NCBI GenBank assembly: GCA_965217895.1
Contig: CBDCJV010000002.1
Coordinates: 608,001-672,000 of the forward strand
DNA: 64,000 nucleotides
Reading direction: 5' to 3'
Source of the DNA: Waterburya sp.
GTDB taxonomy: Bacteria > Cyanobacteriota > Cyanobacteriia > Cyanobacteriales > Xenococcaceae
This document shows positions 18,858 to 37,091 of this stretch, piece by piece; the stretch's first letter is position 1; each line of letters starts with the position of its first letter. The translations under genes and the position numbers were made by a program. A model generated the notes under the pieces. That model searched no databases, had not been told where the DNA came from, and saw nothing but the letters and a program-made list of their open reading frames with translations.

Positions 18858-19067
18858 TTAAAATTTGCGCTCATAACTATTTCCCCGATAGATTAGGGTT
18901 GCAGTTGGACAATCTGTTTTATCTGATTCCCAAATCACTGGAGATGGAATATAGTCGAGTGTATTGCCTCGGTAAACGAGTTTGATCTTAGGTTGCTTCG
19001 TAGAATCATAGTCAAGCTGGATTGGGGCAGGAACTTCGTAGGAGTTCCCCCGATAGGTAAGTTTCAT
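18858..19067 (-). CDS. DUF4278 family small protein
   Basis: Three L.YRG repeats (MKLTYRG, LVYRG, LIYRG) and an AAGGAG RBS. Confidence 0.8.
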   Translation of the reverse strand: MKLTYRGNSYEVPAPIQLDYDSTKQPKIKLVYRGNTLDYIPSPVIWESDKTDCPTATLIYRGNSYERKF

Positions 19068-19151: not shown

Positions 19152-21053
19152 TTAGCGAGAATTTTCGGTTCGCAGCAATGCTAATAGTTTCTTGGCTTTA
19201 GGACGAAGAGAAGTAAACAGACTGCTCAATACCTGAAGATGTTCTTGTCTATTGATGTTGTATTCATTTTTTAGATTACTGATTTGTTTGGTTCTAGCTT
19301 CTACTGCTTCATGAATAGGCATCCCGCTTTCAACCAATTCTTGGAGTAATTGGGCGATCGCTTCTCGATAACTTTCAATCCGTAATCTTTCTTCTTGGGC
19401 ATATTCTGTAACTGGTTTTAGTAGATTAGGATCGCCAATACCCAACTCAGTCAACAGAGCATAATGCTCCTCTTCTGTAATTTCTAATCGCTGACGCACA
19501 GATTGCAAAGATTTAAGACTGTTGCTAGCCTCCACATTACCTGCTTGCAAAGATTCTTCGAGAACACCTCGATAGACCTGTATTTGCTCTTGTTTAGTAA
19601 CTTGAGGTACAACCTGTGCCAATATATTAAGTTCATTAGCTTTTAAATCATCCAATGAACGACCATCAAGAATCTTGGGAAAATCAAGGTTTAGTTTTTT
19701 GAGTTGGCGACGAAGTTTGTCGGCGATACTCTCTTTTTGATATTGAGCATTTGTCCGTCTCCAAGTACGATAAAGCCATAAAGTGCTAACCAAAACCACT
19801 AAAGCATTAAAGATCATCTGCACAATAAAGGGGAGACGCAAAATTTCGGGGCGACCACCATAGACAAAAAAAGTATTAAAGGCAATAAAGGTGCAAATAG
19901 AAAAGTTTCGGTGTAAAATTTGTTGACGCTCAATTCTGGGGTTGCGCCGTCTTAAATAAGAGAACAAAGTTTTTTCACTATTAGTTCCAATTAAGCAACA
20001 GATACCGACAAATACAGCAAAGGTTAGGGGAACTGCTACTAGTTTTGGAATTGCCAGAGGCTGATTAAAAAGATAAAAACCAGGCTTAAAAAGAGTTGCT
20101 AATTGATTTTCTTCATGACTCCAAGCCCCAGAAAAGTAATAATTGAAATTTCCCGCATATAGATAGTAGTAGATAAAATATCCGCTTACTAACCCTAAAT
20201 AACCATATTGAATCAATTTGCGACCAGGCTGAGTCAAGTGTTGCCAATAAGATTTCTCAGCATCAATATCCAGACAGGCAGATTTACAGTTAATACAGGT
20301 ACTTTTTTCTTGTCCTATGCTATCTACAGTTCGGCACATAGACTGAGTTATGGTTCTTGGTGGAGCTTTGTGTGCCTGGCTATCTAATAATCCTCTCGGT
20401 CCGGTAAAAACTAGCTGCACTATACTAAAAGGACATATATAATGACACCAGCTACGACCACCATACAAAAAAACTGTAGCTATAGCTGAGAAGATAGTAA
20501 AGAGTAGAAAACAACCGAAGACTATACGATCTGAGTTAATAAAGAGAATTCGCGAATTTAAGCCGATAAACAGCAGGGCAAACTGCACATATAGATGGTT
20601 GCGAACTAGCCAAAGATTTTTATGAATTCTTAGTCGTGGCTTTAGTCCCAATGCTCGCGGAATTTGCGAAAGAAAATAAAGCGGACAGATCCTGCGCCAA
20701 GTTTCATGTCCGAAAACAAAAACGATCGCGATCGCACTGGGAACTATCATACCCCAAAAAAATCTAGTCCCCATCGGATATGGTGCTTCGGCTAGACATT
20801 CTCCCTGAACCTTGACGCATTGTGTAGGTAGATCGGCAAGAGTGATAATGCGATCGCGAAACGGGCTATATGAGCTGTTTGGATCGCTTAGATGATGAGA
20901 GATAGGATCGTAAAACAAGGAGGCAATTAAGACTAGCCAACCAATTACTATCACCCATCTAATGAAGTGCATTTTTGATTCGGAAACTTGATTAATCATG
21001 GTCGATACTTCTGCAAATTTTTTGAGATAAGACTTTCGTGAAACTGAAATCAT
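19152..21053 (-). CDS. Membrane 4Fe-4S-binding protein (NapH/FixG-like), possibly C-terminally truncated; start may be 20999
   Basis: WRRICP, WCHYICP and CINCKSACLDID motifs with multiple TMs. Confidence 0.7.
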   Translation of the reverse strand: MISVSRKSYLKKFAEVSTMINQVSESKMHFIRWVIVIGWLVLIASLFYDPISHHLSDPNSSYSPFRDRIITLADLPTQCVKVQGECLAEAPYPMGTRFFWGMIVPSAIAIVFVFGHETWRRICPLYFLSQIPRALGLKPRLRIHKNLWLVRNHLYVQFALLFIGLNSRILFINSDRIVFGCFLLFTIFSAIATVFLYGGRSWCHYICPFSIVQLVFTGPRGLLDSQAHKAPPRTITQSMCRTVDSIGQEKSTCINCKSACLDIDAEKSYWQHLTQPGRKLIQYGYLGLVSGYFIYYYLYAGNFNYYFSGAWSHEENQLATLFKPGFYLFNQPLAIPKLVAVPLTFAVFVGICCLIGTNSEKTLFSYLRRRNPRIERQQILHRNFSICTFIAFNTFFVYGGRPEILRLPFIVQMIFNALVVLVSTLWLYRTWRRTNAQYQKESIADKLRRQLKKLNLDFPKILDGRSLDDLKANELNILAQVVPQVTKQEQIQVYRGVLEESLQAGNVEASNSLKSLQSVRQRLEITEEEHYALLTELGIGDPNLLKPVTEYAQEERLRIESYREAIAQLLQELVESGMPIHEAVEARTKQISNLKNEYNINRQEHLQVLSSLFTSLRPKAKKLLALLRTENSR

Positions 21054-21199: not shown

Positions 21200-21478
21200 T
21201 TACTCTTTAGCTGACTTGGTAGCACCATCTTCTAATACAACTATTTCTTTTTTACCAGGAGGTACTAAATAGGAAACAATAAACGTAAGTACAGTGGTTG
21301 CTGCTCCAGATATTTCACCAGATATTTTGTTATCTTTCTGTTTGAAAAAAGGATGGTATGTATTGAGAATCAATACCGTTAAAGTAACTAAAGCTCCTGT
21401 AAATACTCCTGCAGTAACTTTCCTAACGGGTTGATAAGTAGGTTGAGTTTCTTGGGATTGAGTTGTAGTTGAGGTCAT
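21200..21478 (-). CDS. Small two-TM membrane protein
   Basis: Two hydrophobic helices; AAGG RBS and an ATGAG-box promoter upstream. Confidence 0.7.
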   Translation of the reverse strand: MTSTTTQSQETQPTYQPVRKVTAGVFTGALVTLTVLILNTYHPFFKQKDNKISGEISGAATTVLTFIVSYLVPPGKKEIVVLEDGATKSAKE

Positions 21479-21514
21479 GATTAAATACCTTATTTTGTGT
21501 ATTAGCTATGTTTA

Positions 21515-21568
21515 ATATTAGTTTTTCATGCAGCTTTTAAATCTCATAAAACTCATGGGATAACTTAT
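21515..21568 (-). promoter_or_regulatory. Triple ATGAG-box promoter A
   Basis: ATAAG-N7-ATGAG-N4-ATGAG-N22-TAATAT. Confidence 0.7.
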
Positions 21569-21853
21569 AGAAAAGATATCAAAGACTGTAGGTCTATAAA
21601 CTAAAAATATTGGCAAACTATTTCGCCAAGAAAATCGATCAAACAAGAGAATAGATTTTTATTTTCCTCAAGCTTATCGATCTGCAAAATATAGTCTTGT
21701 TAGCTAATTTGAGGTATTAGAATAATCCGCAGATAAACTCAGATGATTTAACTACTTATTAGTTTTTGATGTGCATATAATCTTTTTGACCACCGTATTA
21801 TTATTCGTTACCTAATTAATCTTTAACTTTTGGTTGATAGCTAAAAATTTTAT

Positions 21854-21919
21854 ATGACTTTTTAGATGAGTTTCTCTATGAATTTTATGAGTTTGAAAGC
21901 CTCAAAGCACAACTAGGAT
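21854..21919 (+). promoter_or_regulatory. Triple/quadruple ATGAG-box promoter B
   Basis: ATGAC-N7-ATGAG-N7-ATGAA-N4-ATGAG-N22-TAGGAT. Confidence 0.7.
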
Positions 21920-22091
21920 GAAATGTAGACAACTATCGTTGCAACAGACGCATTTCTCTATTGAGAGATTGAGAGATACGAAAAAAACTTCAGTAGTTTG
22001 TCAAAAATATGTGGCAATTTATCACTGCCGCCTGAAAAAGATAGAGATTTTAATTGTTTACCCACAAATATATTCATCGAGGAGATACGTA

Positions 22092-23780
22092 ATGATTAAT
22101 TATCTACAGGATTTGCCAGAACGAGACCAAGACCTTGAAGCTCGACAACAACAAGCACGCATTACGCGCAAGCTTACCCTTGAAGATGCTTTCAAAGCTT
22201 TTATAACTTTGTCACCACTAACCAATGGAGACGAAGAAAAATATGAACAGCTAGGTTTTCCAGGGTTTGCGTCCTTCTCCAAAGCTTTAGCTCACAATAC
22301 AATCGGACTGGTCGAAAAATCATCTTTTAAATCCCTGCTTATAGCTATCCAAAAAGGCACTCAAGAAGCTTTTGAGAATGTTCAACTAGGTGGAGGGAAG
22401 CGTCTGCTGGTTAATCCTCTCAATGCTTACTCATTTCAGTTAATTGGTAACGATTCTAATGGCGCACGCATAGCACCTGCTCCTAAGTTTACTAGTCGCA
22501 ACACTGCCATCGATATGGTCGAACGCTATTGGATGGCACTGGCGCGAGACGTACGATTTGATCGATACGCTAATAGTACCTTGATCGCTAATGCTTGCAA
22601 GGACTTAAATAACCTGGGATTCGAGCAAGAATTTGGTTTTGAATGCTCGCCAGAGACAATTTTTCGAGGGCCTTATGAGGGTTGTGATGTGGGACCCCAC
22701 GTCTCTCAGTTCCTACTGCAAGATTTCCAGTTTGGCAATCAGCCAATTCGGCAGTTGCAACGCTATCCAAGAGAGGGTCTTGATTACCTAACGGATTTTG
22801 AAACCTGGAAACAAGTTAACAATGGCGATATTAATCCGAGTGGTTCAGACATTATTGACGGTACACGCTATATTACAACGCTACGGGATGCTGGTCAGTG
22901 GGTACATCTTGATTTTCCCCACCAGTCGGGTTTTTGGGCGACAATTATTCTTCTAGGTCTAAAGGTCAATCAATCAGATGCAAACCCTTATGTCAGTAAA
23001 GATATAAAGACTTCTGAAGCGTTTGGTAGTCTTGGTAGTCCAGATATCACGATTCAAAGTGGGCTAGCTGGGGTCTATGCTCTCAAGCACGCTTGGTTTC
23101 AAAAGTGGTGTGTTCATCGACGTATACGACCAGAAGCTTATGCCCAGCGTCTTGAGCTTTTTCGACGTAGGGAGTTGGGTAATTCAGTTGATAGCCTATT
23201 CGACGATGAGAAATTTAACGATCTTTTTGGCGAAGGTGCAGAGGTTTGGCGCAGAACTCAGGTACTCGATCGCATTTTTGAACACAACAAACAGCAAAAC
23301 CAAGCCCATAATCGTGGCGACCGAAATGGCACGTGGTTACTACCGATAGCGTATCCCGAAGGTTCTCCCACTCATCCCTCCTATCCTGGCGGACATTCGG
23401 CATTTATTGCTGCTGCTGCCACCATTGCCAAAGCCTTTTTTGCCGATTGTGAGTTGCCTAATCCGAAAGTGCCAGTTGATGATGGTCAGCGATTAGGAGA
23501 TTTTAAGGCTCCAACCTTGACCGTCCATGGTGAGCTTAATAAGTTGATTGCTAATATCACATTGTTCCGCGATGGGGCGGGAATGCACTGGCGTAGTGAT
23601 GGTACAGCCTCTGGTCTGAATGCTGCATTTGACCGTTCGGGTACTGGCATAGAAACAGGCGGTAATCTGCTGGGTGAAAAGATGGCAATTAGTATGTTGC
23701 GCGACATTAAACGCACCTATAGAGAGGAGGTAGGAACTTTTGAGTTTCGCAGTCTCAAAGGAGATTTAATCAAAATATAG
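22092..23780 (+). CDS. Vanadium-dependent haloperoxidase (PAP2 superfamily)
   Basis: Vanadate-site motifs KWCVHRRIRPE, HPSYPGGH and RDGAGMHWRSD. The true start is probably 22092 (AGGAG RBS), not 21918. Confidence 0.85.
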   Translation: MINYLQDLPERDQDLEARQQQARITRKLTLEDAFKAFITLSPLTNGDEEKYEQLGFPGFASFSKALAHNTIGLVEKSSFKSLLIAIQKGTQEAFENVQLGGGKRLLVNPLNAYSFQLIGNDSNGARIAPAPKFTSRNTAIDMVERYWMALARDVRFDRYANSTLIANACKDLNNLGFEQEFGFECSPETIFRGPYEGCDVGPHVSQFLLQDFQFGNQPIRQLQRYPREGLDYLTDFETWKQVNNGDINPSGSDIIDGTRYITTLRDAGQWVHLDFPHQSGFWATIILLGLKVNQSDANPYVSKDIKTSEAFGSLGSPDITIQSGLAGVYALKHAWFQKWCVHRRIRPEAYAQRLELFRRRELGNSVDSLFDDEKFNDLFGEGAEVWRRTQVLDRIFEHNKQQNQAHNRGDRNGTWLLPIAYPEGSPTHPSYPGGHSAFIAAAATIAKAFFADCELPNPKVPVDDGQRLGDFKAPTLTVHGELNKLIANITLFRDGAGMHWRSDGTASGLNAAFDRSGTGIETGGNLLGEKMAISMLRDIKRTYREEVGTFEFRSLKGDLIKI

Positions 23781-23814
23781 TGAGGAAGTAACTATTAGTT
23801 TTGTAGTCAATGAT

Positions 23815-23846
23815 GATTGGCGGTGAGTTAGAATCTTCCGCTAATC
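23815..23846 (+). terminator. Hairpin downstream of the haloperoxidase
   Basis: GATTGGCGG...CCGCTAATC stem. Confidence 0.45.
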
Positions 23847-24035
23847 TATCCTTCTGCCCTCTGCCTTCGTTCAAATAAAGTTACAAAATCCAGATAAAAT
23901 CGAATAAATAAAAGTAATAATTTAGAACTATATCTTAGGCAAATTATTGTATAATTCATTCAGATAAACTATTAATTTAACTATTTTATATAAAGATACA
24001 ACATCTCAAAGTGCGAACCTAAATTTTTAATCGCC

Positions 24036-25382
24036 ATGAACCTTGATCGCCTCGTAGAAATTGTTGACCGTCAGCTGATCGACAATCAACATCGTCCCCT
24101 GACCTCCATCCAAATTATGATTTTGCGGGGCATTTGGCAGTACAAAACCTACAACCAAATAGCGATGGAGGCAGATTATAGTCCTGGTTACTTTACTACT
24201 GTTGTTGCACCAGAACTATATCAGCTACTTTCTACACTTATTGGTCAGCGCGTAACTAAAAAGAACTGTCGGGTACTGCTGGAGTCTTATGTTACTACCC
24301 AAGGCGATCGACAGACAAGTCCCTCAGGACAAGATCTAATAAAGCCTGACCCTAAGGGTAATATAGATCGGCAAGATAACTTACCTTCTTATCCTAGTGG
24401 CTCAGTACCTCTAAACTCTGCTTTTTATCTAGAACGTTCATCCATTGAAGAGCAGATTAATCGAGAAATCAAAAAACCAGGGGCATTAATTAGAATTAAG
24501 GCCCCTAAAGAAATGGGGAAAACCTCTTTACTGCTGAGAATTCTAGACTATGCCAATCAGCAGGGATACCGTACCGTTAGCTTAAACTTCGAGCAAGCTG
24601 ACCAAGCGATACTCAGCGATTTAAATCAGTTTTTGCGTTGGCTGTGTGCCAACATTAGTCGTCAAATTCAGCGTAAACCGATGTTAGATGAGTATTGGGA
24701 TGAAGACATGGGTAGCAAAATTAGCTCTACCCTCTACTTACAGGACTACATCCTAGACTCGAACGATACTCCCTTTGTTTTGGCATTAGATGAAGTGAAT
24801 CAAGTTTTTGAACATCCTCAAGTAGCAAAAGATTTTTTACCCTTATTACGTTCATGGTACGAAGAAGCAAAAAGACTACCCGTCTGGCAAAAGCTGCGTT
24901 TGATTGTAATTCACTCAACAGAAATTTACGTCCCTCTTCAGCTAAATCAGTCTCCGTTCAATGTAGGCTTACCAATTCAGTTAGAAGATTTTAATTTGCA
25001 AGAGGTACAGCAGTTAGCCCAACGTTACGGACTTAACTGGAAAGATGACGTTCAAGCTAGACAGCTAATGTCTATGGTAGGGGGACATCCTGCACTGGTC
25101 AGTTTAGCTCTTTACCATCTTAGTCGGCAAGAAATAACCATGTCACAGCTATTAGAAACTGCTCCTACGGCTATGGGAATTTATGCTCATCACCTACAGC
25201 GTCACTGGGCAACATTAGAAAAACAGCCCGAACTAGAACAAGCTCTAGATCTTGTTTTTAACGTCACAGAACCTGTTTCTTTAGATCCGCTTGTCGCCTA
25301 TAAGCTAAGTAGTATGGGAGTTATTAAGCAGTTAGGAGATAAAGCGATCGCCGGTTGTGAATTATATCGACGATATTTTTGA
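24036..25382 (+). CDS. N-terminal HTH plus AAA_35-like P-loop ATPase (putative transcription regulator)
   Basis: HTH-like KTYNQIAMEADYSPGY...LYQLLS; YPSGSVPL, KAPKEMGKTSL (Walker A), LALDEV (Walker B). Confidence 0.75.
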   Translation: MNLDRLVEIVDRQLIDNQHRPLTSIQIMILRGIWQYKTYNQIAMEADYSPGYFTTVVAPELYQLLSTLIGQRVTKKNCRVLLESYVTTQGDRQTSPSGQDLIKPDPKGNIDRQDNLPSYPSGSVPLNSAFYLERSSIEEQINREIKKPGALIRIKAPKEMGKTSLLLRILDYANQQGYRTVSLNFEQADQAILSDLNQFLRWLCANISRQIQRKPMLDEYWDEDMGSKISSTLYLQDYILDSNDTPFVLALDEVNQVFEHPQVAKDFLPLLRSWYEEAKRLPVWQKLRLIVIHSTEIYVPLQLNQSPFNVGLPIQLEDFNLQEVQQLAQRYGLNWKDDVQARQLMSMVGGHPALVSLALYHLSRQEITMSQLLETAPTAMGIYAHHLQRHWATLEKQPELEQALDLVFNVTEPVSLDPLVAYKLSSMGVIKQLGDKAIAGCELYRRYF

Positions 25383-25464
25383 ATGATTGTCAAATAATAA
25401 ATTAGGTATATCAATAGGAGGAGTTGTTTTGAGAGTGAATTTTTTTGCCCTAGCTTTTTTGTTC

Positions 25465-28400
25465 TTAAACAAAAATCGATCTATAAATACGATTCTGAAC
25501 TTTCAAAGTTCCCTGTTGCTTGACTGCTAGCCCCGATAACAGCAATTCTCTTTCTTCTGCACTATCAACCGCGACTATTTCTCCCTGCTGTATGATTTGG
25601 TGATAGAGTTCTAGTAGCCTGTCGGACTGTTTGCTTTTAAAAAGGCGATCGCGAATAGTTCTTAGATGCTCAGGCTCATCCTGAGATTCCCAATTGGCAA
25701 TAATTTTGGTTCGTACTAAGTTTTCAATCCACTGAGCTTCAGCATTAGTAGGAATTGAAGATGAATCGCTGCGGATCAGTTTACACAGCTTTTGAGTGAG
25801 AAAAGGCTGACCATTTGTCCAAGCCAGGACTTCTTTTAATACTGTTTGCGGATTAGTTACTTTCTCGCTCAATCCTTGGAGTAAGGGCTGGGCCTCGTGC
25901 TTCTTGAAGCCCTCTAGTTGAATTGCCTGACCGATATTAAAGGGAGTTGTCTGGATATCGTCCATTAAATCTGAGGGAGTCGCAACGCCAAAAAAAGCAA
26001 AGGTTAAACGCTGATACTCTGGGTTGAGACTGCGCTGATTGTAGCAGGAGCGAATGAGGGCAAAAAAGTCATTTACGGGAAAGTTTAAGCCCAAAACGCT
26101 ATCAATTTCATCGATAAAGATGATAATGTTTTTAGGTGAATCATTGTTTGATGCTGATTGCAGTAAAATTTCTTCGATAAATTGACTCAACCGCTGTACG
26201 GGAGAAACGTCTGCTCGTTCTTTCCACCATGTTTTTAGATTAACTGCCCTCAGTAACCCGAAACTACGCCATAGCTCGACTGTAAAACCTTTATACCATT
26301 GTTCAGGGGTAATATTTTCGCTGCCAATGCGGGTCAGGTCGATCGCCCCGCACCTATACCCATCATGCTGGAAGTGGTTCATCATGCGTACCATCAGGCT
26401 AGACTTACCCATTTGCCGAGGATTTAGCACATAACAAAATTCTCCCCGTTTCAACGCCTTATATAAACGGCGATCGGCCGATCGCACGACATAAGTAGGC
26501 GCATCCATCGGCAAACTTCCTCCTACCTGATAGTCAAAAGTAGCATCTGGTTCGGCACTTTTAAGTAACTCGTTTTCAAACAGCAGTTGTGCTTGAGTAG
26601 CTTTGAGAATTTCTAGAGTCTGGGAGAGTTCTTGAGTTCGTTCTAAGACTTTTTGTTCTAGGGTGCGGTTGGACTCGGCTAATTTATCTTTAGCCTGTTG
26701 TAGGGCGACATTCTTGAGTTCAAGTTCATGGGTAAACTGGATTCGTTCTGCTTCTATATGTTTACGTTCGGTGATATCGGCAAAAGCAGCGATCGCATAT
26801 TTAATCTTGCCTGTTTCGTCAAAAATTGGTGTAGCAGAAACCTCCAGGGGCATAATTTTATTAGGCAGATGCAGTTCGAGGTCGTCTTTTTTAACCGTTT
26901 TACCAGCGATCGCGCGGGCAATGGGTAATTCGGCAACTGGGTATAATTGTTCTGTTCCTGCCTGATACACTCGATAAACTTCTGATAATTGCTCTGTTTT
27001 TACGTCATAAGAGGCATTGCTTTCTCGTCCCAGCTTTTTGGCTATTTGGTTGGCATAGTAGGTTTGCCCAGTTAGCTCGTGGACGGATACGCCGACGGGC
27101 ATGGCTTCTAGAAATTGCGCCAGTCGGCTTTGATTTGACTGTAGTTCGCTGTAGAGTTTGGCATTGGTAATGGCGATCGCTGCTTGACTAGATAAGACTC
27201 GCAGAATTTCTAATCTTTCTTGGGTGAATGCGCCGACGATCAGATTGTTTTCTAGATAGATAATGCCCCTAACTTTCCCCTGGTCGAGTAGTGGCGTACA
27301 CAAGAGAGATTTAGTCTGATGAGATTTCAAATAGGGATCTTGATTAAAACTGTCCTCTCTGGCAGCATTATTTTTAAGTACGGTTTGGCGGGTACGAGCA
27401 ACATAGTTAATAATTGAACTGGGAAGACAGCCATTAATAGGTATTGATTCTAAAACACTAACGTCTTCATTTATCGAACCAGAGGCTTCAATTAGGAGTT
27501 GCCCTTGGGTTTCTAAAATTAGGTAGCCAACCTGCGCCCCCGCACTCTCAATCAAAATTTTCATCAGTCTTGCCAGGAGTTTATCCAAAACTATCTCGCT
27601 GGAGATCGCTTGAGAGGCTTTGATAATTGTGGCTAAATCTAAGACTTCTCCCGAACGAGTGTTGGAAGTGGTGGTTCTTAGCTTGTCTGTCATGGAGACA
27701 GTAACGGCGGAGGTTACTAATAACTGGGGGTATTTAACCTGCAAATCTTCAACCTTTGCCGTCGCACCCCAAAGAGAATAAAGATAGTATGCTTCCTTGA
27801 GATAGACTTGGGCAATTTTAACTTTACCCCAGTCAAGATAGAATTTAGCTGCCAGTTCGTTGGCAAAAGCTTCTTCATTCAGGTATTTATTTTCATTAGC
27901 TATAGCTATAGCGCGATCGTAAAAATCCATTGCTTCGAGATAAAAGCCTTGAATGCGATATTGTTCTGCTTCAATCAAGTAATATTTATGCAAAAAATTC
28001 ATCGGCGCACGATCTGCCCACTGCTGCATCTTGGTTTTACGGGCGGCAACTCTAACCAGTATCTGCTGCTGCTGAGAAATTGCTACAGAGTGGTAAATAG
28101 CTAGGTGTGCTAAAGAATCATAAAAATGAAACAGAGGAATAAGTAAGGTTGCCGTTGCACCATCTAAGTATTGTTCTGCTTGAATTGCGTCGGCTACTCC
28201 CTGATGGTATTCGCCAAAAAGACAACAGAGATATAGTTTGTTGACGTATAAAGCGCAGAGGGCATAGCGATCGTTTGCCGACTGGTGCAGGGAAAACATG
28301 ATTGATTCATCATAAAGCTCCCCCTGCAAACGGCAGGGATTTTCTGAGGATACAATTAAATTAGAAACAGCCTGACCGTAGATTTTTAAGTAATTAAGGG

Positions 28401-31400
28401 TGTTTTGTTGTTTGAGTTTAGCAAAAGCGCGATCGTAGACTGCTATTTCTGATGCCAATTGGGTAAGTTCTTTGCCGACAAAAGCTGAATGAAACGAGTA
28501 GATATAGGCACAGGTAGTTCCATAGTATAAATCTCCCATTTCTAAGCCGATTTGATAGGCAGACTGTAGCGATCCTAGTGAGTTTGTGACTAGTTCTTTC
28601 CAGATACTAATTGTCGTGGAAAATACCGCTGTTATCCTGGGTATAAGTTCTGATGTTTGTAATTCCTCAGCAATGTTTAAAGCCAGCCGTCCAAATTGAT
28701 AGCCTTGTTCGATTTCACCTACTACACCACAGAGAATTAGCCCATAATTGACATAAGCAAAAGCAGATAAAGAAGTGTTTCCCGATTGGATCGATAAGTT
28801 AACTTGCTTAGATACCATTATTGGTAAAAGTTGAGGCGCAGCAATAAAGATTGAAGAAAAGAGCGAACTGGCTATTTTCATCACGGCTAATTTCTCTGGA
28901 TCGGTCATTGGCGGTAAATTGACTAGATCCTCAATTTGTTTACCCGCTAAATTGGTTTGAGTTTTTGCCAGTTCTTGTTGAACGTCTAATAACTGAGGGA
29001 ATTCTGGCAAAGTGAACTCTAAATTCTCCAGGATAGATAGAGCCATCTGAATTGCTTTTAAGTCTTGATTTTGTGCCTGGTAAGCTTCCAGCTTGACTTG
29101 ATAAACTTTGACTCGATCTAGCAAAGTCTGCGCCTTTTGCAGCACTACTGAAGCGAAATGCTGCATCTGCTCGAAATCGCCCCCCAAATAAGCTACTTCT
29201 GCTGCTTCTGAGTAGAGAGCTAAGGTAAGATCGTAGTCAGTTTGCCAACTCTCAGCTAGCAAAAATTCTTGACCGATTTGAAAATACTTCAATGCTGCCT
29301 CATAAGCGTTGGCTGCCTTGGCTTTTTGTCCTGCCAGCAAATTTAGTCGAGCAATTTGATTTCTCTCTGGGCGATCGCCAATAAGCTGCTGTCCTAGATT
29401 GAGATGATCGACAATTTTAAAGATCTTGTCGGATAATTCTTCAGGTTCTGTATTCTCCCAAAGTAAGCGACCGATTTTTAGGTGAATAGCCAGCTTTTGC
29501 TGTTGATCGATTAGATCGTAAGCCGCTTGTTGAATGCGATCGTGTCCAAATTTATAATTTTGAATTAATAGTTGTTCATCTAATTCTGATAAAGGGATAA
29601 TTAAACCTGCATTAATTGTTGGGGTTAAGTTTTCAAACAGCAACTCAGCCATTTTGTCGCTAATAAGGGCAATAGTGTTTAAGTCAAATTCTGCCCCAAT
29701 ACAAGCGGCCAAACTCAATACCTCTTGGGTAGATGGAGGCAATTTTTGCATTTTGCCTATCATGAACTTGACCATATTATCGGTATTCTCGATCCTTTCG
29801 ATCTGTTTGAGATCCCATTGCCAATATCCTTGGGGATTTGCAGCATTGAATACCAGCAAATTATCTTGATAGATACTTTTGAGAAATTCATTGACAAAAA
29901 AAGGATTGCCGTTGGTTTTTTGTCTGACTAATTGAGCAAGCGATCGCACGTATTCTCGTTCACTATTTAACGTATCGGCAATTAACTCCTTAATCTGCTG
30001 AACAGCTAGAGGTTTTAAGACAATTTGATTGACTATTGCTCCTTCTCGGCGCAATTTGTCGAGAGTAATGCTCAAGGGATGGACAGGGGTAATCTCGTTA
30101 TCTCGATAAGAACCGATTAAAAACAGGTGATTAAGCTCGCTATCGAGCATGATTAGCTCAATCAACTTGAGACTGGCAGAGTCTGCCCACTGCAAATCAT
30201 CGAGAAAGATAACTAAAGGATGCTTAGAGTCGCAAAAAACACGGATAAAGTTTTTAAAAACCAAATTAAAGCGATTTTGGGCTGCTGTTGCCGTCAATTT
30301 TGATAATTTTGGCTGTTTACCAATAATTAATTCTACTTCGGGAATAACATCAACCATTACTTGACCGTTTATGCCTAAAGCGGTTAATAGCTTGTTGCGC
30401 CAGCGATTAAGTCTTGTCTTACTTTCCCCCAAGAGTTGTTTAACCAGATCGGCTAGGGCATCAACAACCGCAGAATAAGGAGTATTGCGCTGAAACTGGT
30501 CGAATTTACCAGAGATAAAATAGCCCTGTTTCTCAGTAATCGGTTTATAAATTTCTTGTACTAAGGTTGTTTTACCCACCCCAGAATATCCCGTAACCAA
30601 CATTAGTTCGGTTGGAGATGAGTTTAATTCTGTTGCTGCCACTCTCGCAAATGCTGCTAGTAAGGTAGAAATTTCTGACTCTCTGCCATAGAGTTTTTCA
30701 GGAATCTGAAATCTATTAGCCAAATCTTGCGTGGCGATCGCAAAATCCTCTATCTTACCTGTATCTAACTGTCTTAGGCATTCTGCCAAATCTGCCCGAA
30801 CACCATTAGCACTTTGATATCCCTCCTCGGCAGTTTTCGCCATTAGTTTCATGATTATTTTAGAAACAACAGCAGGAATATCAGGATTAATTTGCTGGGG
30901 AGATAACGCTTCTTTTGCTAGATGACAGTGGATTAACTCTAAAGCATCGGTTGTCTCAAAAGGCAATTGTCTGGTAAGCAGTTCGTAGAAAGTGACTCCC
31001 AAAGAATAAAGATCGCTGCGGTAATCGAGACTACGATTCATGCGCCCCGTTTGTTCGGGGGAAATATATGCCAAAGTACCTTCAAGTAGGTTGGGACTTT
31101 TTAGGCGAGGATTTTCCTGCTGAAGAATAGTAGCAATGCCAAAGTCAATAATTTTGAGTTGTCCTGTTGTCTGATTAAAGACAATATTGGCTGGGTTGAT
31201 ATCTTTGTGAATAACCTTGGCTGCATGAATCTTAGCCAAATTCTCAACTATCTGAATCCCCAGATCCAGAAATTCTGCTAATGTTAACGGTTTTTCCTCA
31301 ATCCATTTTTTTAAAGATATAGCCCCAAAATCTTCGAGAATAATAATTAAAGTTCTCCCATAGGATTCTAAACCATAAGCCTTAATTGCCCCAGCGAACT

Positions 31401-31584
31401 TGAGACTGCAAATAATCTTATATTCTTGCCGATAACGAGCGAGTTCTTGAGCCGTAGGATATTCTTGTTTGAGAACTTTGAAGATAACAGGCTGATTATC
31501 CGAGAAGCGAATCCCCTGATAAACTTCTGAGTTAAAGCTTTCATAAATTTTGGTCTGAACTTGGTAGCCAGTCAAAGTTATCAT
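25465..31584 (-). CDS. Multi-domain Ser/Thr kinase-AAA-helical repeat-GAF-PAS-AAA_35 sensor
   Basis: Kinase [20 protein letters not shown]; ATPase GYSGVGKT and [22 protein letters not shown]; coiled coil; then [24 protein letters not shown]. No HisKA/HATPase module. Confidence 0.88.
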
Positions 31585-31681
31585 GATTAATTACTTAAAA
31601 TTAAGTCTATAGAGAAGTTATTGAAAGGCTTAGAGCTTAGAGCTACCCTGAACCTCTAATTTTCTTAACTCGAAAGTAGCG

Positions 31682-33442
31682 TTAATTTACTTTTCGATTA
31701 AGAATATCACTGCGCCGATTGACAAAAAATTCATACGGGACTTTGACCACACTTCGCATAGCACACAAATATCTATTGACATTGTAATGAGATTGTCTGG
31801 GGCTAATTTGCTTAAAATACTCTGAATGCAAGGTAAAGCCAAAATTAACTGTCTTTGGTAGATGAAGTTTGGCAATAGGTCCTTGGTTGAGACAATCGGC
31901 AGCAAACAGCCAAACTTGAGAACCTTCGGGCGCAAAAACCGTAGCAAATATGTATCCTTTTTCGCCTTGAGGAATAAATTGAACGCTGTCTAAAATATAA
32001 CCCTGAGGACAAACATAAAAATCAAGTAGTTCTTTTCCCAAATCAGACAGAGGAGTATCAGAATTTTGTTCTTGTTCTGTCTTAATTTGCTGGGTAAGTT
32101 CCTGCCAATTTTTATCTAACGGCACTTTAGCTAAAACTGAAGGAAGATCGTGTTTTGGAAGTTGCTCGTCTGATAATATTCTATTTTGATGATCGCGGAA
32201 GCTAAGATATTGACGGCGACAGATTAAATCTTGATGATACCCAGCGTAAATTTGATAGATAGCAGAGTACCCTTTAGGATTAAAAAGCTCTCGCGGATCG
32301 GCGGTATGCAGCATGGTTGCGAACCAACCTGGATGGATAAACACTTCTTGTTCAATTAGTTGAGCGTCTTGAATTGTTACCTTACGCAATACTCCAGGGT
32401 CAAAGGCAAACATCCAAGGTATACCATGATATTCGGTTGTATAGCGATCGCCACTAAAGTGTCTGACATCGTTGGGTTTTATGGCTTCAGTTAAGCTAAT
32501 GGTTGCCTGTTGGACGGCCACACAATAAGTTTTCTGCTTAATCTGATGATAGTTACATAAGAAGTGATAACTATCCCCAGCAAAAGTTATTAGACGTGAC
32601 GGCACAGAGTCTGCTTTTTCGGTTAAATCTCGGCGGTTGACTAGATAAAGTTGCGTTTTTGGATAAGCCTGTTGAGGCGCAACTTTCACTCCCAATAACG
32701 TCGCTACTCCCATCTGGAAAGGCATATCGGGAATCATAATAAACTCTTGGGTAACTATTGTCGTATGCGCGCTACCGTCAAGGATTGTACCTTCTATTTG
32801 CCAGTGTTTTAAAGTGCCTTCCCCATCCCAAAGAGTAATATAGGGTTCACTAATCATATCGCTAAACAAACTTCCTGGACGGAGTTCTGACTTTAATTCA
32901 CAGCTAATTAGTTCTTTAGTCTGAGAATCGTAAAAAGGGTGTGCCGTATTTGCCACCAAAGGAAAAAACGAGAGGGGAATAGAAACAATATGTTCGTCAA
33001 AATAGCCTATGGGAGTAGCAGTTTCTAGGGTAACTGGATCTACTTCCCAGTAACGCCCTGCATCGGCGGTGAGAATTAGCCTGCCGTCCATGTTGACCAT
33101 AGCAGTGTTAGCTATCTCGGCAATGCCAATCAGACCAAGCCTAGCAGGAAAAAATGCTTCTGGCAGTAGTTCAGTCAGGGGCGATTCTACTAAATGCCAA
33201 AGACTATCCCAAGTGTTCAATTTTTGGCTTTGGACTTTAATTCTTCCCTGTTGAGGCTGGAGATCCCACCTGATAACTACACCTTCTCCAGCAAATAAAT
33301 GGCGATCGCGTCGCCGATGGCAAGGTGCAACAATAAAAACATGACCCGCTAAATTCTCTGACCAATTCCCTTCAATCTTGGCATATTCACATAAGCTAGT
33401 TGAATTGGCAGAACTGCGAAACTTACTAACATCAACCAACAT
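31682..33442 (-). CDS. Carotenoid/stilbenoid cleavage oxygenase (RPE65) family protein
   Basis: ANTA, DAGRYWEVDPVTLET and four candidate Fe-binding His (TAHP, SAHT, SYHF, TLHS). Confidence 0.8.
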   Translation of the reverse strand: MLVDVSKFRSSANSTSLCEYAKIEGNWSENLAGHVFIVAPCHRRRDRHLFAGEGVVIRWDLQPQQGRIKVQSQKLNTWDSLWHLVESPLTELLPEAFFPARLGLIGIAEIANTAMVNMDGRLILTADAGRYWEVDPVTLETATPIGYFDEHIVSIPLSFFPLVANTAHPFYDSQTKELISCELKSELRPGSLFSDMISEPYITLWDGEGTLKHWQIEGTILDGSAHTTIVTQEFIMIPDMPFQMGVATLLGVKVAPQQAYPKTQLYLVNRRDLTEKADSVPSRLITFAGDSYHFLCNYHQIKQKTYCVAVQQATISLTEAIKPNDVRHFSGDRYTTEYHGIPWMFAFDPGVLRKVTIQDAQLIEQEVFIHPGWFATMLHTADPRELFNPKGYSAIYQIYAGYHQDLICRRQYLSFRDHQNRILSDEQLPKHDLPSVLAKVPLDKNWQELTQQIKTEQEQNSDTPLSDLGKELLDFYVCPQGYILDSVQFIPQGEKGYIFATVFAPEGSQVWLFAADCLNQGPIAKLHLPKTVNFGFTLHSEYFKQISPRQSHYNVNRYLCAMRSVVKVPYEFFVNRRSDILNRKVN

Positions 33443-33586
33443 AATAAGATACTCCTAAAGTCTCCAAGAATCTAAGCAGTGAAAAAAACTTCAATTATCT
33501 TCATTAAATACGTGTATAAGACTTGATTTATGCCTTTTTATTAATCTGTGACTCAATTAATACTCGTATTTGAGATCTGATATTTC

Positions 33587-33640
33587 ATCTTAGTTTTACT
33601 TTTAGTATTCCAATCTCATAAAGCTCATAAAAAAACTCAT
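33587..33640 (-). promoter_or_regulatory. Triple ATGAG-box promoter C
   Basis: ATGAG-N7-ATGAG-N4-ATGAG-N22-TAAGAT. Confidence 0.75.
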
Positions 33641-33803: not shown

Positions 33804-34280
33804 TCAAAGCAGAAATTGTAATTGCTTTTCCATTAAATAATTCTTAAAAGTTTCTCCTCTACAAGCTACCTGTTGTTCTTTAACTATGCTAAATCCTTGC
33901 TTGATGAAAAATGCTTGAGCGGTAATGCTAGCTTCAGTAAATAAACGAATTAAATTTAACTCTACAGCTTTATTTTCTATGGCTTTATATATTTTTTCGC
34001 CAACTCCTTGACGTTGATAGTTACAATGACAATAAAAGAAATCAATGTGACCATTTGCTTCTAATTCGCCAAAACCAATTATTTTACTATCTTTTTCAGC
34101 CACATAAGTAAATCTGCTCAAACATATTTCCAGCCAATTTCTGAAATAAATATCATTAGGTGACCAAGCTTCAACCTGTTCTTGAAAATAGTCTTGAATA
34201 TTTATATATCTAACCGTATCGTGAAATAGTTGGGCTATTTGTTCAGTATCTTCTGGTTGAAACAATCTAATTTTCATCAT
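33804..34280 (-). CDS. GNAT family N-acetyltransferase (YafP-like)
   Basis: YQRQGVG motif A and EASITAQAFF; start is probably the ATG at 34280 or 34277. Confidence 0.85.
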   Translation of the reverse strand: MMKIRLFQPEDTEQIAQLFHDTVRYINIQDYFQEQVEAWSPNDIYFRNWLEICLSRFTYVAEKDSKIIGFGELEANGHIDFFYCHCNYQRQGVGEKIYKAIENKAVELNLIRLFTEASITAQAFFIKQGFSIVKEQQVACRGETFKNYLMEKQLQFLL

Positions 34281-34364
34281 AGCTACAAAATGTAATTTCA
34301 CCTTAGCTAATAGCTAACGGCTAAGAGCTACGAACAGAATTATTATGTATGTCATTACTGTCTT

Positions 34365-34456
34365 GAACGAGTTGCTCATTGAGGGAAAGCCAAGGCGCGT
34401 TTTGAGTGAGAAGTTTCCCACTCAAAAGCCGCCGTCCCAAGACCGCACTCGTTCGC
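34365..34456. repeat. Nested short dispersed hairpin repeats
   Basis: Outer GAACGAGTTGC...GCACTCGTTC with an inner TTTTGAGTG..CACTCAAAA hairpin. Confidence 0.6.
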
Positions 34457-34491
34457 TAAATCAGCAACGCCAAATTTTTTTGGTTAAAGTC

Positions 34492-36807
34492 TTATTCCAC
34501 TTTTTCCATTGGAGCAATTTTTGGGATGATTTTAGTTACTCCCATGCTCAGAAATTTAACTGCTAGAGTTGCCTTTTTGCCACTACCTAAAATATGAGTA
34601 ACTTCGCCGTCTCCAAACTCATGATGCAAGACGCGATCGCCTACACTCCAGTCAATATCAATAGCTTGAGAAGTTCTTTCGGCGCGGTTACGGCGACGAT
34701 AGGTAGTTGCCAAATTAATATTACTGCTAATTAATTCTCCTGGAAGCTCCTGCAAAAACTGGGAGGATACCGCAGGTTCTCTTGTTCCCCAAAGACGGCG
34801 TTCTCTGGCGTAGGTAAGAAATAACTGTTCTTGAGCGCGAGTTACCCCTACATAACATAGACGACGCTCTTCTTCTATTTCCAAAGGATCGTTCAAAGTT
34901 CGATTGTGGGGTAACAAACCTTGTTCCATACCTACTAGAAAAACTACAGGAAATTCTAAACCTTTAGCTGAATGTAGGGTCATCATCGAGACTTTTTGCT
35001 GTTCTTCGTTCAAATTATCTAAATCTGAGGAGAGAGATGCACTAGCCAGAAATGCTTCTAAGCTATTTTCTTCATTATCTTCCTGAAACTGCTGCACCGC
35101 GTTATATAATTCGTAAATGTTAGCAATACGGTTATCGGCTTCGTCTGTACCCTGTTGCTGTAGTTCTGTGACGTAGCCTGTCTGTTCGATAATCTGACTT
35201 AAAACTTCTGCTGCCGTGAGGTTTTCAAGCTGATCCTTAGTTGCTTGGATCATTCGGGCAAACTCATTTAGAGATTTTGCTGCTCGTCCTCCCATAGTGT
35301 TAACCGAGGTTTCGTCGTTCACAATTTCCCATAAAGGTATGCCCATTTGCTGTGAGGCATTCATCAATCTATCCATGGTTGTTTTACCGATACCACGACG
35401 GGGAGTATTGATAATTCGCAGTAGGCTAACGGTATCTTCGGGGTTCACTATAAGGCGTAAATAAGCGATCGCATCTTTGACTTCTTTGCGGTCATAAAAC
35501 TTTAAACCGCCGACAATATTATAAGGAATATTATTGTGTAACAGTAAATCCTCAAAGGGACGAGACTGAGCATTAGTGCGATACAAAATAGAAAAATCAC
35601 CCCAGTCTATTTCAGGATGATTTTCTTTAATCTGCTTTATTTGCTGCACTACAAACCGCGCTTCTTCCTGCTCTTCATCGGCTTTGTGCAGGTAAATTTG
35701 TTCGCCCACACCTCTTGTCGGCTTAAGAACTTTATCAATCCGTTGGCTATTGTGAGCAATGAGATGATTCGCTGCCTGTAATATATTCTCGCGGGAACGA
35801 TAATTCTCTTCCAGCTTAATCATAGTGCGGGTATCTTCATCGGCTAGACCATCACCAAAATCTTTTTGAAAATCTAGCAGAATCGTAAAGTCAGCTAAAC
35901 GGAAAGAATAAATTGACTGATCTGCATCTCCTACTACAAAAAGCGATCGCCTATTCCAATTCCACTCGCTCTTATTTGTCTCTCCATTAGTTGCCAGCAG
36001 TCGAATCAAGTCATACTGAATACGGTTAGTATCCTGATATTCATCAACTAAAATGTGCTGAAATTGCGTATGCCAATAGCCCAAAATTGATTCATTTTGC
36101 TGAAAAAGCTTAACAGGAACCCAGATTAAATCATCAAAATCCAAGGCATTGTTTGCTGCCAACCGCGACTGATATTCGTTATAAATTTCTGAAACTACGC
36201 GCCCACGATAACCAGGCTCTTGTTTAGCAAAGTCATCTGGAGTCAAACCCTGATTTTTAGCATTACTAACAATGTATCTAATCTTTTTAGGATCGAACTT
36301 TTTGTTATCTAGATTTAATTCTTTAGTAACAATATTCTTAAATAGACTTTGCACATCCGACTCATCAAAGATCGAAAAATTGCGTTTCCAAGTGCGCCCG
36401 CGTTCATCTTGGTATTTATTAATATCAAAGCGCAGTAGCTTGGCAAATAAACTATGAAAAGTACCAATCCACAGCTTTTTGGTTGTTCTTTTATATACCC
36501 TCGATTTTAGAGCCTTTTGCTCATACTCTGTCAAAAACTCCAGCCGTTGACCATGGTGTTCTAAAGCTAACTCCGTGGCAAAGATATATTCAATCCTTTC
36601 CCGCATCTCCCGGGCAGCTTTATTTGTAAAGGTAACTGCCAAAATATGCTCTGGATCTGTCTTTTGGTTACGAATCAAATTAGCAATGCGATAGGTCAAC
36701 GCCCTGGTTTTACCCGAACCTGCCCCCGCAACTACCAACATTGGCCCACAGTAATGCTCTACAGCAAGGCGTTGTGAAGGATTAAGTTGGCTCAGAAAGT
36801 CAGACAT
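34492..36807 (-). CDS. pcrA: ATP-dependent DNA helicase PcrA/UvrD
   Basis: AGAGSGKT, DEYQD, VGDADQSIY, TLHSAKGLEFP, EERRLCYV. Confidence 0.96.
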   Translation of the reverse strand: MSDFLSQLNPSQRLAVEHYCGPMLVVAGAGSGKTRALTYRIANLIRNQKTDPEHILAVTFTNKAAREMRERIEYIFATELALEHHGQRLEFLTEYEQKALKSRVYKRTTKKLWIGTFHSLFAKLLRFDINKYQDERGRTWKRNFSIFDESDVQSLFKNIVTKELNLDNKKFDPKKIRYIVSNAKNQGLTPDDFAKQEPGYRGRVVSEIYNEYQSRLAANNALDFDDLIWVPVKLFQQNESILGYWHTQFQHILVDEYQDTNRIQYDLIRLLATNGETNKSEWNWNRRSLFVVGDADQSIYSFRLADFTILLDFQKDFGDGLADEDTRTMIKLEENYRSRENILQAANHLIAHNSQRIDKVLKPTRGVGEQIYLHKADEEQEEARFVVQQIKQIKENHPEIDWGDFSILYRTNAQSRPFEDLLLHNNIPYNIVGGLKFYDRKEVKDAIAYLRLIVNPEDTVSLLRIINTPRRGIGKTTMDRLMNASQQMGIPLWEIVNDETSVNTMGGRAAKSLNEFARMIQATKDQLENLTAAEVLSQIIEQTGYVTELQQQGTDEADNRIANIYELYNAVQQFQEDNEENSLEAFLASASLSSDLDNLNEEQQKVSMMTLHSAKGLEFPVVFLVGMEQGLLPHNRTLNDPLEIEEERRLCYVGVTRAQEQLFLTYARERRLWGTREPAVSSQFLQELPGELISSNINLATTYRRRNRAERTSQAIDIDWSVGDRVLHHEFGDGEVTHILGSGKKATLAVKFLSMGVTKIIPKIAPMEKVE

Positions 36808-36970
36808 TTTGCAAGGATGAGAAACTATAAAGGGATGAGGGTGGAAGTATAAGGATTAAAGATGAAATAAATAATTCCTGGTTGTCTATGTTATCAAGAT
36901 TTTGATTTTAAAACTCAACATACCCCTCTTTTGTCATACCAAATTAAATTGTATCCGCTACAGATTAATT

Positions 36971-36998
36971 GTAAGGGTGAACGGTCGTTCGCCCTTAC
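36971..36998. repeat. REP-like palindrome
   Basis: GTAAGGGTGAACGGTCGTTCGCCCTTAC. Confidence 0.7.
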
Positions 36999-37037
36999 AG
37001 AAAACTTTACGAAAATTAAACACAATCAAAAAAAAGC

Positions 37038-37071: not shown

Positions 37072-37091
37072 ATTGGTTAAAAATTTATAAT

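Follow-up and report, generated by a model that had tools for sequence, protein, structure and literature searches.

A sensor kinase and a helix-turn-helix regulator that end in paired AAA_35 ATPases, with a shared direct-repeat operator, at a locus of the cyanobacterium Waterburya sp.

Introduction

A stretch of 64,000 nucleotides (nt) from Waterburya sp. (assembly GCA_965217895.1, contig CBDCJV010000002.1, positions 608,001 to 672,000), referred to below as the window, carries two convergent genes, one for a 2039-amino-acid (aa) sensor kinase and one for a 448-aa helix-turn-helix (HTH) regulator, each of which ends in an ATPase of the AAA_35 family, together with three flanking promoters that are preceded by repeats of the pentamer ATGAG, which we call the box (Table 1). 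The two ATPases belong to different subtypes, named Y after the YQVGGSL start of the sensor's domain and P for the PSGSVPL type found in the regulator. A domain scan and a genome-wide box scan confirmed the anatomy of kinase, regulator and shared operator that an earlier note on this DNA had proposed, and comparison with relatives makes the locus an example of a cyanobacterial regulatory module, patchy in distribution and in some cases carried on plasmids, that consists of a Y-ended sensor, a P-based regulator and a direct-repeat operator; contact between Y and P, binding of DNA and the sign of control within this module are predictions from comparison.

Table 1. Coordinates of the genes and predicted operator-promoters of the window, and of tandem operator arrays elsewhere
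Feature	Position	Strand	Description
Sensor	25465..31584	-	2039 aa; KD-type Ser/Thr kinase, SWACOS-like ATPase, helical region, GAF, PAS, coiled coil, Y-type AAA_35
Regulator	24036..25382	+	448 aa; five-helix HTH (aa 1-95), flexible linker, P-type AAA_35 (aa 119-448)
Operator-promoter 1	21515..21568	-	ATAAG-N7-ATGAG-N4-ATGAG (21568-21543), 22 nt, -10-like TAATAT (21520-21515)
Operator-promoter 2	21854..21919	+	ATGAC-N7-ATGAG-N7-ATGAA-N4-ATGAG (21854-21891), 22 nt, -10-like TAGGAT (21914-21919)
Operator-promoter 3	33587..33640	-	ATGAG-N7-ATGAG-N4-ATGAG (33640-33615), 22 nt, -10-like TAAGAT (33592-33587)
Vanadium haloperoxidase-like	22092..23780	+	562 aa; E=2.7e-58 to bromoperoxidase 1qi9; predicted target
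RPE65/carotenoid-oxygenase-family protein	31682..33442	-	586 aa; PF03055, 80.4 bits vs cut-off 27; predicted target
Conserved hydrophobic protein	21200..21478	-	92 aa; predicted target
Multi-pass membrane protein with 4Fe-4S (Fer4_5-type) motifs	19152..21053	-	633 aa; 146 base pairs behind the 92-aa frame
DUF4278-resembling frame	18858..19067	-	69 aa; likeness by motif pattern alone
Tandem operator arrays	G258:C1:6461219-6461565, G258:C1:1591639-1591784, G260:C113:82269-82423, L042:6725-6957		

The Sensor and the Regulator

The Pfam domains of the sensor lie at residues 18-250 (Pkinase, 121.6 bits), 297-490 (AAA_16), 1333-1472 (GAF) and 1492-1608 (PAS), and its terminal AAA_35 domain occupies residues 1689-2038 (128.6 bits against a cut-off of 27), with Walker A at K1727 and Walker B at D1825-E1826; the corresponding motifs RQMGKSS and DE are kept in at least 95% of 24 Y sequences. 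The earlier note had placed this ATPase where HisKA/HATPase would start, and the placement holds: a Pfam scan of 24 families found neither domain in the sensor while detecting both in the kinase of the relative locus L120, and this His-kinase relative, which served for the junction comparison as no HstK paralogue was found in the window's own genome, goes on into an H-box region at the point where the window's protein passes from coil to AAA_35 without an H-box. The sensor is derived from the HstK family yet is not a member of it, as the KD-type kinase and GAF are present and the C-terminal His kinase is absent.

The regulator gene ends 82 base pairs (bp) from the kinase stop. Its AAA_35 domain scores 497 bits and runs to the last residue, and the Pfam scan found no Response_reg match (control proteins were positive) and no sensor domain, in agreement with the earlier description of an HTH protein with the other AAA_35 subtype and without a receiver. 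The P ATPase keeps K162 and D252-E253; the run M160-G-K-T-S164 and D252 are invariant in 34 sequences, and E253 is kept in at least 90%. The AlphaFold2 model of the regulator has a predicted local distance difference test (pLDDT) of 87, and its residues 116-448 align best to two archaeal STAND-like ATPases, 2qen (Z 20.6, root-mean-square deviation 4.3, 306 aligned) and 2fna (Z 19.6), and then to the nucleotide-binding oligomerization domains (NODs) of NLR proteins, the MalT NOD (Z 16.2) and ORC/Cdc6. The P ATPase is thereby modelled as a STAND NOD fold of P-loop, helical and winged-helix parts, in which Y is placed by sequence likeness to P (25% identity, E=2e-19).

A sequence search against solved structures returned no informative match for the whole regulator and, for the HTH, just a match to a Cpl-7-like lysozyme repeat with no domain passing on its own; Foldseek returned nothing at E<=0.001, and the Pfam scan used gave no match to the PF26355 profile. 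In the ESM Atlas, residues 1-95 share 212 of 256 features with PF26355 HTH_VMAP-M9 clusters (feature score 0.92), to which all 10 best named matches belong. Modelled alone, the HTH has a pLDDT of 93 and its top 12 structural matches are all LuxR/NarL-type HTHs, with Z of only 6.9-7.9.

The Operator and Its Promoters

The 5.29-Mb genome of the window was scanned for ATGAG-N7-ATGAG-N4-ATGAG at 14 or more of the 15 fixed positions, and the box occurs three times, always at this locus: at 21568 (-), 21866 (+) and 33640 (-). A weight matrix built from 56 sites outside the window finds the same three sites and no others at or above 12 bits (scores 33.6-51.9 bits), so that the shared operator architecture claimed for the three flanking transcription units stands. 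A TAN3T element sits 22 nt after each of them. Among 70 distinct box sites outside the window, TAN3T lies at 21-22 nt in 63 and at any other offset between 12 and 31 in at most 4, with four of the seven exceptions coming from a single tandem array in L042; 66 of the 70 are intergenic, 64 of 69 face an open reading frame (ORF) on the same strand, and a fourth box often stands another 12 nt upstream.

No TTGACA-like pattern of columns appears downstream of the boxes across the 56 sites, where a -35 element would lie, and the last box ends about 35 nt ahead of the transcription start, which is predicted near 21926 (+), 21508 (-) and 33580 (-) for the three promoters. A generic sigma-70 and terminator scan, which performs at chance level in the window (39 promoter-like sites against 38.0 expected, 11 terminators against 12.9), scores none of the three promoters at the box-associated position. 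This layout, with a fixed gap to the -10 element and no -35 consensus, is in sequence terms that of activator-dependent promoters, and since the last box abuts a -35 region that lacks a TTGACA-like consensus, we are fairly confident that the regulator would activate.

Genomes of Moorena loci contain long tandem arrays of the 21-bp operator unit (repeating at 12+9 bp, with as many as about 14 matches that overlap; Table 1). The array in L042, where this was checked, has no -10 box; such arrays may be decoys, high-avidity sites or repeat expansions. At four loci (L048:11521, L049:11456, L063:11459 and L065:10324) an antisense box with its -10 element lies just past the regulator stop and is aimed into the regulator gene, and further along that strand L049, L063 and L065 have an ATP-synthase beta-type gene.

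The Box Follows the HTH

Three comparisons connect the box with the regulator. In a family sample of 60 genomes, picked regardless of the locus and searched with one mismatch allowed, the box is present in all 26 genomes with an HTH orthologue (at least 60% identity) and in 6 of the 34 without, against two matches of a reversed-pattern control; a kinase-type Y ATPase (at least 70% identity) is found in 24 of the 26, in one case beside a different regulator, and in 3 of the 34. The co-occurrence of gene pair and motif that the earlier note had named as a check is therefore borne out. In the genomes reached from 50 of 70 relative loci, the exact box is present in 27 of 29 with a close regulator and in 2 of 21 others, and the exact pattern is absent from 250 other genomes of the class. 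At the level of the phylum, a kinase-type Y ATPase at E<=1e-160 occurs in 16 of 200 other genomes, all of the same order as the window's.

The third comparison uses natural exchanges of the HTH, with L075, L077, L097, L111 and L119 dropped as duplicates or for want of a P domain. Loci whose HTH has the SPGY recognition helix carry ATGAG in 45 of 62 cases; where an XRE-type HTH is found instead, as in L118 on a plasmid of Calothrix PCC 6303, 11-bp repeats of AAGTCAG occur in 9 of 10 loci and ATGAG in none; loci with the changed recognition helix STSY carry TATTAG repeats in 6 of 8 and, again, no ATGAG; and 32 other P loci have ATGAG once and neither of the other motifs. The XRE-HTH group nests among other P ATPases in the P tree. 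Because the box goes with the HTH clade and an exchanged HTH comes with a different repeat, the window's HTH very probably reads the ATGAG box. De novo motif searches around the regulator clades of Okeania and Coleofasciculus gave nothing convincing.

Two records call for a remark. The HTH orthologue of genome G347 lies in a 211-aa frame, and L030, in a record labelled Rhizobium, matches the cyanobacterial L029 gene for gene, so that the label is probably a binning error and L030 no evidence of transfer.

Probable Cognate Pairing of the P and Y ATPases

The P domain of the regulator varies together with the Y domain of the sensor rather than with the remainder of the kinase. Over 40 loci in which all four domains are covered, pairwise distances of P correlate with those of Y at r=0.90, with AAA_16 at 0.32 and with GAF at 0.51. 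Genetic linkage was considered as the source of this co-variation and was rejected: 18 loci have the kinase body placed between P and Y on the DNA, and in these P-Y remains at r=0.93, while the intervening body correlates poorly with P (0.13 for AAA_16, 0.48 for GAF). In 15 loci with an RPE65-like gene, by contrast, the distances of that gene track the kinase body (r=0.94 with AAA_16, 0.84 with GAF) and not Y (0.39) or P (0.46), which gives the kinase gene a seam, with body and cargo changing together on one side and Y with P on the other.

Pairing of the two subtypes extends beyond this locus. Of 41 genomes sampled from the order, 37 encode AAA_35 proteins, up to 26 in a single genome. In 40 order-level genomes, with P-like rows taken from the 150 of 297 AAA_35 matches that were listed plus 149 further rows, 87 of 142 P domains lie within 12 kilobases (kb) of a Y domain and 2 of 142 near another P, which is a lower bound as the contigs are fragmented; among the matches listed, the copy numbers of P and Y per genome rise together (rho 0.89), P precedes Y in 60 of 72 close pairs, and four ORFs fuse both types. 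Y-then-P fusion proteins also stand beside kinase-Y genes at L080:13337-16027, with a cyclase in between, L127:18374-19901 and L128:13693-15948. With three P and three Y domains in all, the window's genome contains, beyond the pair described here, an adjacent HTH-P and Y-transmembrane-WD40 pair (G000:C2:235749-240456, with the P protein at 239152-240456) and an unlinked HTH-P and Y-transmembrane-WD40 about 50 kb apart (4358371-4359699 and 4409082-4412669). From this co-variation and adjacency we consider it likely that the two ATPases are in direct contact and that each Y has its cognate P.

Wiring in Relatives

The earlier note went further in proposing that ATPase pairing replaces His-Asp phosphotransfer, which fits the 2039-aa protein but not its relatives, some of which place the PAS-coil-Y unit behind His-Asp relays. 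On a plasmid of Nostoc flagelliforme, the regulator and its cargo are followed by a kinase-AAA-GAF-HisKA-HATPase protein, a single receiver and a protein of receiver (REC), PAS, coil and Y, the last of which is 71% identical to the coil and Y of the window's sensor; other relatives have dCache-HisKA-HATPase-REC-PAS-Y proteins, one of which adjoins an orthologous regulator in L105. Because the unit is found behind a canonical relay or within a hybrid kinase, the pair would replace the last step of signalling and can be wired in series with phosphotransfer, and comparison of these proteins presents PAS-coil-Y as a portable transmitter, fused onto GAF here and following a phosphorelay elsewhere. 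The receiving side varies as well: P domains beside kinase-Y genes also bear CHAT (L113), cyclase (L080) and GGDEF (L091) outputs.

Proposed Mechanism and Alternatives

In the mechanism that we favour, a signal perceived by the kinase-SWACOS-GAF-PAS body would travel along the coiled coil, which in HstK proteins drives the His kinase, to the Y ATPase; Y would dock on the P ATPase of the regulator and switch it on by seeding an ATP-bound assembly of its cognate P, thereby aligning several HTHs on the 12+9 bp repeat array, and these would recruit RNA polymerase and activate the three promoters. The steps from body to Y and from Y to a seeded assembly on the array are moderately probable, a weaker proposition than the contact itself, and for the whole chain from signal to RNA polymerase we regard the balance as even. 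The kinase lies in the gene run behind a box at 20 of the 70 sites and the regulator at 10, which makes feedback of the module onto its own genes plausible, and a kinase gene behind an activating box would close a positive loop. As the RPE65-like enzyme and the kinase body appear to evolve together, the signal might, speculatively, be tied to the cargo.

Several observations weigh against this reading. Support for the regulatory model is wholly comparative, and the genomes compared are kin that are not independent, with many Nostoc loci near-identical, for which reason p-values calculated for the link of operator and HTH were given no weight. Six genomes of the family sample have the box and no detected regulator; three of these are 99-100% complete, three are 75-81% complete, and two outside the latter group carry the kinase ATPase. 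Of the SPGY loci, 17 of 62 lack a box at 14/15 in the stretch covered (some stretches are short or hold weaker sites), L079, L082, L086, L117 and L120 show no recognisable site, and five carry AAGTCAG too; the XRE-like variants L122 and L123 are without the AAGTCAG repeat. The motifs AAGTCAG and TATTAG were first read from part of the loci in which they were then counted, so that only L078, L081, L094, L118 and L131, L132 are out of sample. The models suggest a LuxR/NarL-like fold for the N-terminal domain of the regulator at Z of 7-8, which is weak. At the candidate arginine-finger position, R is present in 40 of 81 Y domains and 0 of 112 P domains, and the Y of the window has T; with the residue missing from that Y and from all P, classic trans-stimulated hydrolysis, as in a catalytic ring, is doubtful here. 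Finally, the co-variation of P and Y carries no sign, and would look alike whether Y activates or sequesters P.

This last point gives most room to an arrangement of the same pair with the opposite sign, in which Y would be an anti-activator that holds the regulator inactive until a signal frees it for the ATGAG promoters. Identical co-occurrence and co-variation are predicted; the regulator itself lacks any sensor or inhibitory domain, the Y of the window is without the candidate arginine finger, and MalY acting on MalT provides a precedent (PMC10427625). Yet Y occupies the output position that the His kinase holds in HstK-type proteins and keeps its Walker motifs, as a switched transmitter would, and the frequency of kinase genes behind boxes suits positive and negative feedback equally. 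We judge this alternative unlikely, though the most serious of those considered.

Slightly less probable still is that the pair serves as a split NLR, an immune or conflict receptor with transcription as its defence response, a proposal that concerns the input and is compatible with the activating chain set out above. The P fold is common to NLR NODs and Avs proteins, P domains also bear CHAT and cyclase outputs, a caspase-domain protein and a contractile-injection sheath are among the genes behind the box, and MNS-clade NTPases have been placed in counter-invader systems by Kaur et al. (PMC8195603). Against it, PADLOC recognised neither the regulator nor any of the four cargo genes and matched the sensor only through generic kinase domains; the sensor body, here and in relatives, is kinase-GAF-PAS or dCache-His kinase, and the cargo consists mostly of enzymes.

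The Ser/Thr kinase could instead phosphorylate the regulator in the manner of AfsK and AfsR, with the two ATPases forming separate homo-oligomers. The kinase motifs look intact (HKD is present in the window's sensor, and of 63 relatives 50 have HKD..N and 52 have DFG/S), and AfsK does phosphorylate the STAND activator AfsR, where phosphorylation is nevertheless scarcely activating (PMC10936776). In a first pass over 24 loci, P tracked Y (r=0.91) and not the kinase domain (0.36; partial correlation 0.08), and P-Y pairs exist without any Ser/Thr kinase, as in the AAA_35-WD40 proteins of the window's genome and the dCache-His kinase-REC-PAS-Y protein of L105; a phosphorylation mechanism accordingly has a small chance of being right.

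A repressor that covers the -35 region and is relieved by the sensor is more improbable again: the last box, so close to the predicted start, would indeed touch that region, but no TTGACA-like pattern follows the boxes, none of the three promoters scores as sigma-70, the -10 spacing is held as for activators, and no box lies over the -10 or +1 position. That the ATGAG arrays might be commonplace cyanobacterial tandem repeats of short units, or remnants of a mobile element, unlinked to the regulator, is suggested by the long 21-bp arrays of some genomes and by a few weak matches of heptamer-like GAGTTAT repeats, and is largely refuted by three copies in 5.3 Mb that all lie at the locus, none in the 250 class genomes, the fixed distance to TAN3T and a presence that follows the HTH clade.

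Relation to Known Systems

The sensor resembles the HstK/cbSTKIII dual kinases in its KD-type Ser/Thr kinase, GAF, optional PAS and coiled coil leading into the output, and swapping of that output is known, since in an Arthrospira protein an adenylate cyclase takes the position of the His kinase (PMC2176072, PMC2853384). The window's sensor differs in that its output is AAA_35 and its partner an ATPase-HTH protein rather than a response regulator; the available portions of these two papers do not mention an ATPase output among such kinases.

On the regulator side the closest likeness is to MalT of E. coli and AfsR of Streptomyces, which combine a NOD-like ATPase with a DNA-binding domain and use several sites per promoter (PMC10427625, PMC10936776); the repeats at the predicted sites lie, as for such activators, at or just upstream of -35 and keep their distance to -10, and AfsR/SARP direct repeats overlap the -35 element (PMC10936776). 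MalT and AfsR have a TPR-type sensor region of their own, whereas the regulator ends with its ATPase, has an N-terminal, swappable HTH and leaves sensing to another protein, which carries the cognate ATPase. The spacing differs too, being 12+9 bp with 21-22 nt to -10 here, against 11/22 bp and 8 bp for SARPs (PMC10936776). A pair of NLRs such as NAIP-NLRC4 follows a like logic, with a sensor ATPase that seeds an effector ATPase, but belongs to eukaryotic immunity with protease or pore outputs, unlike a bacterial kinase-GAF-PAS sensor with a DNA-binding output; 8fvu, from this group, matches the model of the regulator at Z 12.7.

Promoters of NtcA leave a 22-nt gap to TAN3T. They are similar to those described here in that an activator site near -40 replaces the -35 element (NtcA sites are centred near -41.5; PMC3898017), but NtcA is a CRP-family dimer on a GTAN8TAC palindrome, whereas the operator of the window consists of three or four direct repeats. 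The fold neighbours of the P ATPase fit the MNS clade of STAND NTPases.

The best fold matches of P, the archaeal SSO1545 and PABY2304, are members of that clade, and the Npun family is a cyanobacterial expansion. The two AAA_35 subtypes may already have been noted by Leipe et al. in 2004. An 'Npun2340/2341 family' is named within the MNS clade, and the same source describes nSTAND2, in which two adjacent genes each have a STAND module, a hetero-multimer is predicted and one partner carries variable effectors (PMC8195603). In nSTAND2 only one of the modules is active, GT4 or HEPN domains serve as effectors and the family is a close relation of CR-ATPases (PMC8195603), whereas both Walker sets are kept here and the outputs seen on P-type ATPases are HTH, CHAT, cyclase and GGDEF, with neither GT4 nor HEPN.

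By these comparisons the system is not an HstK kinase, not a two-component pair, not a one-chain activator of the MalT/AfsR kind and not nSTAND2; it would work as a STAND activator does, with the sensor and effector halves on separate proteins. The literature searched, which excluded subscription journals and supplements, yielded no description of the P-Y pair, the regulator or the box, no functional study of AAA_35 proteins, and no cognate sensor-regulator pair, regulon or operator for the MNS clade or Npun family. Kleigrewe et al. in 2015 reportedly noted a 'regulatory serine histidine kinase' beside Moorea clusters, which might belong to this family. New here are the link to the kinase, the linkage-controlled co-variation, the three-way exchange of HTH and operator, and the His-Asp intermediates.

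A broader proposition, which we hold tentatively and with slightly more doubt than belief, is that cyanobacteria use a third, phosphotransfer-free form of two-protein signalling through pairs of Y transmitters and P receivers, with the ATGAG box as a portable master switch. If so, the sensors joined to Y would be of the kinase-GAF-PAS, hybrid His-kinase, receiver or WD40 kind, and P would serve outputs that range over several HTH types, CHAT, cyclase and GGDEF; the box would switch silent clusters for ribosomally synthesized and post-translationally modified peptides, halogenation and injection systems in Moorena, Symploca, Nostoc and Pleurocapsa, with the product of each cluster feeding back on the switch; and a transmitter-receiver chemistry would stand beside His-Asp relays, as would a split sensor-helper STAND design in bacterial transcription. 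Through this locus the AAA_35 family gains an input and an output that can be read, along with a DNA target, which makes pairing testable with a reporter and two proteins, and the box predicts regulons and offers a route to switching on silent biosynthetic clusters in cyanobacteria rich in natural products.

Predicted Targets and Cargo

The three targets named in the earlier note, a haloperoxidase, an RPE65-type oxygenase and a small membrane protein, each lie behind a box in the window, but as a regulon they are lineage-specific cargo, with other genes behind the box elsewhere, and the left-hand unit is probably longer than proposed. In relatives that bear the labels Waterburya, Pleurocapsa and allies, the box is again accompanied by the haloperoxidase, RPE65, 92-aa and iron-sulphur genes. 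Other loci have it in front of YcaO/TOMM enzymes, amidohydrolases, a tetrapyrrole-methylase-fold gene, sigma-70 factors, a caspase-domain protein, an AraC-type regulator and a phage-sheath-type gene. The last of these stands behind the box in Nostoc at L050:14892, L058:15137, L060:15027, L064:14206 and L066:14289, where it is probably the start of a contractile injection system operon.

The haloperoxidase frame is open from 21918, but the protein probably starts at 22092, since homologues start there and GGAG precedes that ATG, whereas the ATG of the longer frame, at 21918, overlaps the -10 box. On the same strand, the regulator gene begins 255 bp downstream. The protein keeps the K-x6-RP, GH and R-x5-H motifs, whose roles in the active site we take to be those of haloperoxidases. 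The Ser of the vanadate loop is replaced by Gly (PSYPGGH, against PSYPSGH in 1qi9), as in 13 of 13 homologues, and this change in the SGH loop may alter the halide range or the activity of the haloperoxidase-like protein.

In the RPE65-like protein, H168, H226, H293 and H539 are invariant in 18 of 18 homologues and presumably bind iron, a role assigned by inference because phmmer matched no relative of solved structure. The gene ends 97 bp before the kinase start, the distance given in the earlier note, with no terminator between them in the generic, chance-level scan, and is probably co-transcribed with the kinase. Among relatives, 54 of 58 kinase genes are co-oriented behind an upstream gene. 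The tree of kinase bodies is not cleanly sorted by that gene, with RPE65-preceded kinases in three places and the amidohydrolase type mixed, and the notion that the sensor follows its cargo is thus supported just within the RPE65 set.

The 92-aa protein has no Pfam or NCBIfam match and is known from nine aligned copies, the window's included, at 68-100% identity. Its transcription unit probably runs on into the 633-aa iron-sulphur membrane protein, whose orthologue in L098 has a box directly upstream, and the 69-aa frame is a possible third gene; DUF4278 proteins come after the box in L097 and L115.

Further Observations

AAGTCAG repeats also occur in ATGAG-type Nostoc loci (L055:13193, L058:13090, L060:12980, L064:12159 and L071:1531), with a ferric-reductase-like gene next in four cases, and a second regulator may act on these clusters. 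The RPE65-kinase cassettes of L122, L123 and L124 are 58-75% identical to that of the window; those of L122 and L123 adjoin an XRE-like regulator variant and have neither an ATGAG nor an AAGTCAG array. The kinase gene is broken into two ORFs in L073, L104, L108 and L127, through sequencing error or decay. No box precedes the genes of the window's flanks, which are ordinary: the domain scan of 33804-39659 and 16611-18322 identifies a GNAT acetyltransferase and an ABC-transporter ATPase, and a PcrA/UvrD-type helicase, a glycogen phosphorylase and a CHAD-like protein were recognised by eye.

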